Assembly (NCBI RefSeq): GCF_003334355.1
Contig: NZ_QOWP01000003.1
Length of the DNA stretch: 64,000 bases
Direction: 5' to 3' (one strand)
Source: Escherichia coli
GTDB taxonomy: Bacteria; Pseudomonadota; Gammaproteobacteria; Enterobacterales; Enterobacteriaceae
Shown one piece after another: positions 2,648 through 2,793 of this stretch. The position numbers and the translations under genes were made by a program. The notes below the pieces were generated by a model. It saw only the letters and a list, made by a program, of their open reading frames with translations. It did no database searches and was not told where the DNA came from. Numbering within the stretch: the first letter of the stretch is position 1; every line of letters starts with the position of its first letter.

Positions 2648-2663
2648 TGTGATATAGTTCACA
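2648..2663. promoter_or_regulatory. Candidate CRP site tgtgaTATAGTtcaca (perfect TGTGA-N6-TCACA) in pdeC/yjcB divergent intergenic region
   Basis: Palindrome read directly from sequence; matches CRP consensus half-sites and spacing. Confidence 0.5.
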
Positions 2664-2793
2664 AAATTAATGAAACAAACAGAGTGTTTCATTTTTGTGT
2701 TCTGCAAGCCCCGCGATAGCCAGAGTGTACCACGCCTCCCGTGAACAACGCCGCGCTGTCCAGGGCATCGGCTCTTTTCAGAGGAATTGTTTG

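Follow-up and report, generated by a model that had tools for sequence, protein, structure and literature searches.

A predicted CRP operator over the yjcB core promoter of Escherichia coli, probably repressive, and the inverted repeat beside it

What does a perfect CRP-type palindrome do when it lies between two divergent genes and next to a second inverted repeat: which of the genes does it govern, in which sense, and what reads the second repeat? The question is raised by the pdeC (yjcC)–yjcB divergent intergenic region, which holds both motifs, in a stretch of E. coli DNA of 64,000 nucleotides (contig NZ_QOWP01000003.1; this whole stretch is the window, and positions are counted from its first letter). 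We find that the palindrome is a predicted CRP operator that covers the −10 element of yjcB and abuts its transcription start site (TSS), and that it has stayed with yjcB across the Enterobacterales. The explanation that we hold to be likely is a joint one, in which cyclic AMP (cAMP)-CRP on the core promoter would repress yjcB by occlusion and the adjacent repeat would serve as the operator of an auxiliary repressor.

The palindrome, TGTGATATAGTTCACA, sits at 2648–2663, exactly where a preliminary description of this DNA had placed it, with the correct spacing and with all 10 core positions. The inverted repeat TGAAACAAACAGAGTGTTTCA is likewise at the coordinates given there, 2671–2691, but its arms, described as 7 bp long, are really 9 bp: AATGAAACA at 2669–2677 and TGTTTCATT at 2685–2693 match perfectly around the 7-nt centre AACAGAG. 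The distance of “8 bp” between the motifs holds as a count of positions from the end of the first to the start of the second; the gap proper is 7 nt (2664–2670). Each pattern occurs once in the window, both strands considered, versus 0.03 expected from 100 dinucleotide shuffles, three of which contained any match. The window differs from MG1655 around the motifs by a single nucleotide polymorphism, at 2456, and MG1655 coordinates were converted as window = 4277835 − genome, a relation verified against NC_000913.3.

The position of the palindrome relative to the yjcB promoter is set by the following features.

2648–2663, no strand: CRP operator core, TGTGA-N6-TCACA, with its centre at 2655.5, which is −10.5 from the yjcB TSS
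2645–2666, no strand: predicted 22-bp CRP site, AATTGTGATATAGTTCACAAAA, containing the 16-bp core
2650–2658, plus strand: extended −10 element of the yjcB sigma-70 promoter, TGaTATAGT, with the hexamer TATAGT at 2653–2658, within the CRP spacer and left arm
2632–2637, plus strand: weak −35-like hexamer, CTAACA, from Shimada 2014 and the sequence, with a 15-bp spacer
2666, plus strand: primary yjcB TSS, the published site converted from MG1655, 8 nt past the −10 hexamer
2666–2793, plus strand: yjcB 5′ untranslated region (UTR), 128 nt, from the TSS and the start codon at 2794
2794–3075, plus strand: yjcB coding sequence, a small inner-membrane protein of 93 residues; the regulated gene

The two elements are not merely neighbors. 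The TG of the extended −10 (2650–2651) belongs to the left arm of the palindrome, whose spacer is the −10 hexamer. Compared with the 22-bp CRP consensus, AAATGTGATCTAGATCACATTT, the predicted site matches at 16 of 22 positions and at all 10 core positions. The promoter is tabulated as CTAACA-15-TATAGT (Shimada 2014), the −35-like hexamer of which was not called by a generic promoter scan. The primary TSS of yjcB is given as MG1655 4275169, minus strand, in Table 1 of the TSSpredator-Web paper (2026), which is based on differential RNA sequencing; the corresponding base, 2666, lies three bases beyond the right arm and at +11 from the CRP center. The predicted operator thus covers the DNA needed by sigma-70 region 2. 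A center at −10.5 differs from the class I and class II activation positions (−41.5, −61.5, −71.5 and the like), and activation from either class of position is therefore not expected.

The sign of the effect was taken from published expression data. In E. coli W3110, yjcB is among the genes that are up in Δcrp relative to wild type at both pH 7.5 and pH 5.5 (PMC13339887); at pH 5.5 the values are 474 versus 155 transcripts per million (log2 fold change 1.61, q = 8e-6), in agreement with quantitative PCR. The RNA of yjcB is also strongly induced by acid, with a log2 fold change of 5.9 at pH 4.4 and 2.3 at pH 5.5, and the gene is among those most strongly induced under severe acid and antibiotic stress. 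A 2009 report on “yjcB” in BMC Microbiol was set aside, as it concerns the unrelated yjcB of B. subtilis. Because the predicted site overlaps the −10 and extended −10 and yjcB mRNA rises in Δcrp, cAMP-CRP most likely represses yjcB, the opposite of classical catabolite activation. The catabolite control proposed in the preliminary description is thus upheld as to the predicted CRP operator, whose arms are present at all 37 loci examined below, and as to a change of yjcB mRNA upon crp deletion, but with the sign reversed. In mechanistic terms, we infer that cAMP-CRP bound at −10.5 would compete with RNA polymerase for the same DNA, and a dimeric repressor on the second repeat would extend the repression complex across the start site. 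On this model yjcB would be best expressed when cAMP is low and a stress activator, MarA, SoxS or Rob, is bound just upstream, at about 2607–2621.

The conservation of the site was followed in 37 loci recovered by a genome-collection scan for YjcB, which range from Escherichia to Erwinia and Serratia, span more than 12 genera and encode proteins of 100% to 43% identity. A CRP-type site lies 56–140 bp 5′ of the yjcB start in every one of them, and its TGTGA/TCACA arms are kept throughout (33 perfect, 4 with CGTGA). All 16 positions of the core, TATAGT included, are essentially invariant in the 27 Enterobacteriaceae loci, where TGATATAGT is found at the same offset. In 10 loci from Erwinia, Serratia and related genera (YjcB is 43–50% identical in Erwinia and Serratia), the arms are again perfect and the spacer is unrelated, GC-rich and devoid of a −10 (TGTGACCGTCGTCACA and similar). 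These 10 loci instead carry an extended −10 of the form TGnTAnAAT (TGATATAAT, TGCTATAAT or TGCTACAAT) whose last base is the first T of TGTGA; this lies exactly 10 bp 5′ of the Enterobacteriaceae position, so that there, too, operator and core promoter overlap, with the predicted start included. Conservation of the −10 alone is therefore an insufficient explanation for conservation of the palindrome.

Within the species, the region was found in 5,422 of 5,426 complete E. coli genomes, and two exact alleles (28–30-mers) containing the CRP core cover 5,299 of the 5,426. The PhyloScan study of 2007 had already ranked yjcB in the top 20 of four out of six CRP scans (ranks 2, 3, 7 and 16). Two further observations concern the genome collections: three to four plasmid records among the E. 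coli genomes hold a copy of this chromosomal intergenic region, and one orthologue contig labelled Flavobacterium paronense (L007, NZ_JAUFQN010000013.1) carries yjcB, pdeC and ssb that are 100% identical to those of E. coli, almost certainly through assembly contamination.

The preliminary description had left the target as yjcB, pdeC or both, and the evidence sustains the first and not the second. The features on the pdeC side are as follows.

778–2364, minus strand: pdeC coding sequence, the divergent neighbor, probably not the primary target of the CRP site
2385–2412, minus strand: predicted pdeC (yjcC) sigma-70 promoter, TTTTCA-16-TATAAA (Shimada 2014), about 277 bp from the CRP center

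The order of genes in E. coli is soxS, pdeC, yjcB, ssb, uvrA. In many of the orthologous loci pdeC has been lost, has given way to soxS or lies more than 2 kb off, and the distance between the site and yjcB is kept; it is thus yjcB that the site accompanies, with or without pdeC nearby. Of the E. coli lists, pdeC figures solely in those of genes down in ΔrpoS and in none of the Δcrp lists (PMC13339887). The distance of about 277 bp, the RpoS dependence, the absence from the Δcrp lists and the retention of the site where pdeC is not adjacent all point away from direct CRP control of pdeC in E. coli. The synteny itself bears on the history of the locus. In Erwinia and its relatives (L036, L037, L040, L041 and L043), there is no pdeC, and the gene directly 5′ of yjcB, in the same orientation, is soxS, an order which suggests that the soxS–yjcB linkage is older and tighter than that of pdeC and yjcB. 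In Escherichia sp. MOD1-EC7003 (L008), pdeC has been deleted down to its last ~28 codons, soxS abuts the yjcB control region, and the CRP site and the second repeat are both kept.

How far, then, do other explanations account for the palindrome? One of them comes from Klebsiella pneumoniae CG43, in which this palindrome, in its opposite-strand reading, has been tabulated upstream of yjcC with a Δcrp/wild-type ratio of 2.85, and for which direct CRP repression of yjcC was proposed by the authors. From this 2.85-fold rise in yjcC mRNA, from the loss of paraquat induction of a Klebsiella yjcC-lacZ fusion upon deletion of a distal segment containing the palindrome (Huang et al. 2013), and from the MarA peak between yjcB and pdeC, one could argue that pdeC/yjcC, too, is controlled from a shared region with the CRP site, by way of a divergent promoter that is distal and SoxS-dependent. 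We regard this as distinctly unlikely, given that E. coli pdeC is RpoS-dependent and off the Δcrp lists, that the site is kept where pdeC is not adjacent, that a reading of the sequence there shows no good −10 on the minus strand, and that the Klebsiella effects are possibly indirect. The FNR consensus is TTGAT-N4-ATCAA. The palindrome, TGTGA-N6-TCACA, is a CRP core and not that consensus, and the label of Fnr box given to its Klebsiella copy (Huang et al. 2013) is rejected.

Classical catabolite activation of yjcB or pdeC from a class I or II position at 2648–2663 is very improbable. The CRP core is perfect, and a conserved CGATAGCC block at about 2711–2720 could be a minor downstream promoter, from which CRP would stand near −71; against this, the sole reported primary TSS places the site at −10.5, yjcB goes up and not down in Δcrp, the predicted pdeC promoter lies about 277 bp off, and E. 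coli pdeC is missing from the Δcrp lists. We give the least credence to the proposal that the palindrome is a mere strong extended −10 that resembles a CRP site, with CRP not binding and the Δcrp effect indirect. TGaTATAGT is a good extended −10 that would by itself explain conservation within the Enterobacteriaceae, and the literature yielded no CRP-binding data at the site; however, the right arm, TCACA, lies outside the −10 and is nevertheless invariant in 37/37 loci, and Erwinia and Serratia keep both arms around a GC-rich spacer that is no −10, with the −10 itself displaced by 10 bp.

The second repeat lies on the other side of the start site and can be described in two registers.

2669–2693, no strand: second inverted repeat, AATGAAACA-AACAGAG-TGTTTCATT, at +4 to +28 of the yjcB transcript
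2669–2676 and 2686–2693, no strand: the same repeat as octamers, AATGAAAC and GTTTCATT, with a 9-bp spacer; candidate repressor operator or 5′ mRNA hairpin

Judged from its sequence, the repeat is probably the docking site of a second repressor. Given a TSS at 2666 the repeat is transcribed, and it could instead act as RNA, as a 5′-terminal stem-loop (+4 to +28) that stabilizes yjcB mRNA or modulates its translation. The predicted 9-bp AU-rich stem (−6.9 kcal/mol, z = −2.28) is present in both the minimum free energy and the centroid fold of the whole UTR, and some hairpin is possible in most Enterobacteriaceae orthologues, its register sometimes shifted. In the 27 Enterobacteriaceae orthologues, however, the helix pairs in 76.6% of cells versus 74.8% in column shuffles (reached by 61 of 500), 77 of 500 shuffles attain the covariation score, so that there is no covariation beyond column composition, and position 5 of the left arm varies (A, T or C) opposite a partner that is constantly T. 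Enterobacter kpr-6 and Pseudenterobacter retain GTTTCATT although hardly any hairpin is left to them (−1.7 and −0.7 kcal/mol), and an Rfam scan of 2200–3300 at E ≤ 1 gave nothing overlapping the repeat. The fold of the whole yjcB 5′ UTR is no more stable than that of shuffles (z = −0.59). An RNA role is on these grounds rather unlikely. An intrinsic terminator or attenuator was also considered and rejected, as the terminator scan did not call the repeat and the downstream T-run is not conserved outside Escherichia, and so were two small open reading frames through the repeat (plus-strand ATG at 2670, 24 residues; minus-strand ATG at 2692), which run to 1–62 codons across orthologues and are neither of them conserved. 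The lack of covariation, the conservation of sequence and not of pairing, the missing Rfam match and the lack of a conserved open reading frame favor a DNA-level, sequence-specific element.

Among DNA-binding proteins, the architecture of the locus would make CytR the best candidate, as the only LacI-family protein that needs a neighboring CRP and tolerates split half-sites. CytR operators are built of inverted octamers, AATGYAAC/GTTRCATT, with a CRP operator within 5 nt, and the octamers are separated by at most 4–5 bp or by about one helical turn, with a conserved 9 bp at nupG; the cassettes contain one to three CRP sites, and the cytR promoter has one (PMC3454398). The repeat read as AATGAAAC-N9-GTTTCATT matches the CytR SELEX (systematic evolution of ligands by exponential enrichment) octamers at 7 of 8 positions on each side, one mismatch each. 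No other CytR-type match with up to two mismatches is present in the window, nor is there any in 5,000 local shuffles. The E. coli spacer measures 9 bp and those of orthologues 7–10 bp, and the repeat is 5 nt from the 16-bp CRP core and 2 nt from the 22-bp site. The left octamers of orthologues carry ATGCAAC, ATGTAAC or GTGCAAT, many having the CytR-consensus C or T at left position 5, and in the Atlantibacter group the repeat reads AATGCAAC-N7-TTTGCGTTCAT, which comes close to a proven operator, that of udp (ATGCAAC-gca-TTTGCGTCAT). Erwinia and Serratia are without a CytR-like element (7–10 mismatches). It is thus possible, and we put it forward tentatively, that yjcB is an unrecognized member of the CytR regulon, with a single CRP on the −10 and CytR on split half-sites at +4 to +28, in which case CRP–CytR would act here as a true occluding repressor and not as an anti-activator. 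The supplement of Sernova & Gelfand does not list yjcB (PMC3454398); the published CytR screen called for two CRP sites spaced 10–40 bp and for that reason could not have found the yjcB cassette. The gene ycdZ (nupT), which Sernova & Gelfand put forward as a CytR-regulon candidate, is up in Δcrp at pH 5.5, like yjcB, and expression is lowered for the classical CytR targets cdd, udp, nupC and cytR (PMC13339887, Table S2).

The comparison with known regulator sites that the preliminary description had recommended yields CytR-like octamers and KdgR-like arms. The consensus arms of KdgR, an IclR-family repressor, are AATRAAAYR/YRTTTYATT. The repeat could accordingly be a KdgR operator or a derivative of one, its arms AATGAAACA/TGTTTCATT matching the consensus at 18 of 18 positions, which is better than the E. 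coli operators of kdgK (AATGGAACA-C-TGTTTTAAT) and kdgT (AATAAAACA-G-CGTTTCAAT) with three mismatches each, and a site just downstream of the TSS suits a repressor. The spacer, however, is 7 nt, compared with 1 nt in kdgK and kdgT, so that the half-sites are 16 bp apart center to center and not 10 and would fall on opposite faces of the helix; the canonical 1-nt spacing is found in no orthologue, and position 5 of the arm, an A in KdgR sites, is C or T in many orthologues. KdgR is therefore an improbable occupant. What probability CytR, the hairpin and KdgR leave belongs to some other factor or to the absence of a present function. Among further candidates, Cra or another contiguous LacI-type operator was rejected because the TGAAAC/GTTTCA half-sites are 9 bp apart and the central CG is absent, a PhoP direct repeat, TGTTTC-N5-TGTGTT, because its second hexamer is not conserved, and OmpR, TyrR, ArcA and MetR because none gave a convincing match to the consensus.

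Several points weigh against the joint explanation of CRP occlusion and an adjacent auxiliary operator that we prefer. In the literature we found no electrophoretic mobility shift, footprint or chromatin immunoprecipitation (ChIP) evidence for CRP at this site, yjcB is absent from the supplementary tables examined of a Crp ChIP-exo study, and a text search with the exact motif sequence returned no match. The rise in Δcrp is modest (about 3-fold), and an indirect cause is possible in principle. As to the repeat, three alleles of the 31-mer that contains it cover 5,351 E. coli genomes, but 441 genomes (8.1%) have TGTTTCT in place of TGTTTCA in the right arm with the CRP core intact, which indicates a weaker constraint on the repeat than on the CRP site. 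For CytR in particular, the central base is off consensus in each of the two E. coli half-sites (TGAAA/TTTCA versus TGCAA/TTGCA), the arms match the KdgR consensus even better, albeit at the wrong spacing, the locus has a single CRP site where the majority of CytR architectures have two that flank the operator, and no cytR-dependent yjcB expression data were found in the literature. The sequence TGTGTTCTGCAAGCCC (2696–2711, TGTGT) was considered as a second flanking CRP site and rejected as a poor match that is not conserved.

Three observations on the repeat stand apart from this argument. The A2691T allele, carried by strain KE55 and 440 other genomes, is lineage-wide and amounts to a natural mutant of the right arm. 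The right arm itself, TGTTTCAT(T) at 2685–2693, resembles the translation-initiation region of yjcB at 2784–2796, which reads TTGTTTGATG in E. coli and TGTTTCATG in C. amalonaticus, C. sedlakii and Intestinirhabdus (L012, L016 and L017); the left arm could thus alternatively pair with the start-codon region, a possible translational switch. In four Erwinia loci (L034, L036, L037 and L040) a different short palindrome, ATGAC(C)-N4-6-(G)GTCA, lies 5–6 nt past the CRP core, at the offset of the second repeat in E. coli, which suggests that some palindrome beside the CRP site is maintained there with a different sequence.

The preliminary description had also allowed for a second regulator. The regulators that ChIP has shown in this region are MarA and SoxS: yjcB<>yjcC was found with MarA by ChIP-seq and is reported as a target of SoxS by ChIP-exo (Sharma et al. 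2017, PMC5684230). The predicted MarA element maps as follows.

2607–2621, no strand: MarA ChIP-seq peak with a MEME-predicted marbox, gcaataaaagtcacg (Sharma et al. 2017), located here in the sequence

MarA and SoxS are thus predicted to bind upstream and not at the second palindrome, for which a regulator of its own is plausible.

Part of this picture is known. The CRP site was predicted in 2007 and noticed in Klebsiella in 2013 and 2016, and the effect of crp was measured in 2026. We found no prior description of a CRP spacer that encloses the −10 here, with the TSS at +11 from the center of the site, of conservation out to Erwinia and Serratia with a promoter shift of one turn, or of the likeness of the adjacent repeat to CytR and KdgR sites. 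YjcB is an uncharacterized small inner-membrane protein, and the regulatory logic proposed for its gene would be ON under stress (MarA, SoxS or Rob) and OFF under carbon limitation (cAMP-CRP on the −10). The locus offers a clean natural example of a −10 nested in a predicted CRP operator, an arrangement preserved across the Enterobacterales with the promoter moved by one turn in Erwinia and Serratia. If the adjacent repeat is a CytR operator, the known range of CRP–CytR architectures would be extended, and a stress gene activated by MarA and SoxS would be coupled to nucleoside and cAMP status; otherwise yjcB is an ordinary, largely anticipated CRP target, which by itself establishes no link between CRP and cyclic di-GMP through pdeC in E. 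coli.

Other features flank these elements. Within the yjcB 5′ UTR, blocks at 2711–2770 (CGATAGCCAGAGTG... and CGCGCTGTCC.GGGCA) are conserved in Escherichia and Citrobacter and form the main predicted UTR helix. The corresponding UTR of three Serratia loci (L038, L039 and L042) has GC-rich hairpins, each with a T-run after it, between the CRP site and the start codon (CCTCATCTG...CAGATGAGGCTTTTG and GCACCGCCGGGTGCGGCTTTT are examples), and these look like leader terminators or attenuators. Downstream, the yjcB–ssb spacer (3076–3173) holds a strong terminator-like hairpin at 3081–3105, with a 10-bp stem and 6 G-C pairs, between the convergent genes. This junction has been described as a hotspot for the integration of an 18-kb Detocs/dGTPase defense island (PMC11728103); in the window it consists of the 98-bp spacer only, with no island.

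The arrangement at yjcB can be set beside four known systems. It resembles the promoters of the MarA/SoxS/Rob regulon (PMC5684230) in that yjcB<>yjcC is a ChIP target of MarA and SoxS and yjcB is strongly induced by acid and by antibiotic stress, whereas the predicted marbox (2607–2621) is separate from, and upstream of, both motifs. With the KdgR operators of kdgK and kdgT it shares the sequence of the arms, AATGAAACA/TGTTTCATT, which fit the consensus, but not the spacing, which is 7 nt instead of 1 and canonical in no orthologue. The CRP–CytR cassettes of udp, nupG, deoP2 and cytR (PMC3454398) are similar in their octamers, in the 9-bp spacer of nupG and in having CRP within 5 nt. The cytR promoter likewise has a single CRP site upstream of the operator, and the udp operator is like the repeats of the Atlantibacter-group yjcB orthologues. 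Unlike these cassettes, the E. coli yjcB half-sites have A/T where CytR sites have C/G, the candidate operator is downstream of the TSS, and CRP at yjcB would itself be the repressor and not an activator silenced by CytR. A class of CRP-repressed promoters, of which cyaA P2 is an example, has a CRP operator over the −10 or the TSS and is controlled by occlusion. Like these, yjcB has a consensus-like CRP site on its core promoter and is expressed more highly in Δcrp; unlike them, its −10 hexamer is embedded within the predicted CRP spacer, and the arrangement is conserved across genera, with the −10 moved by one helical turn in Erwinia and Serratia.

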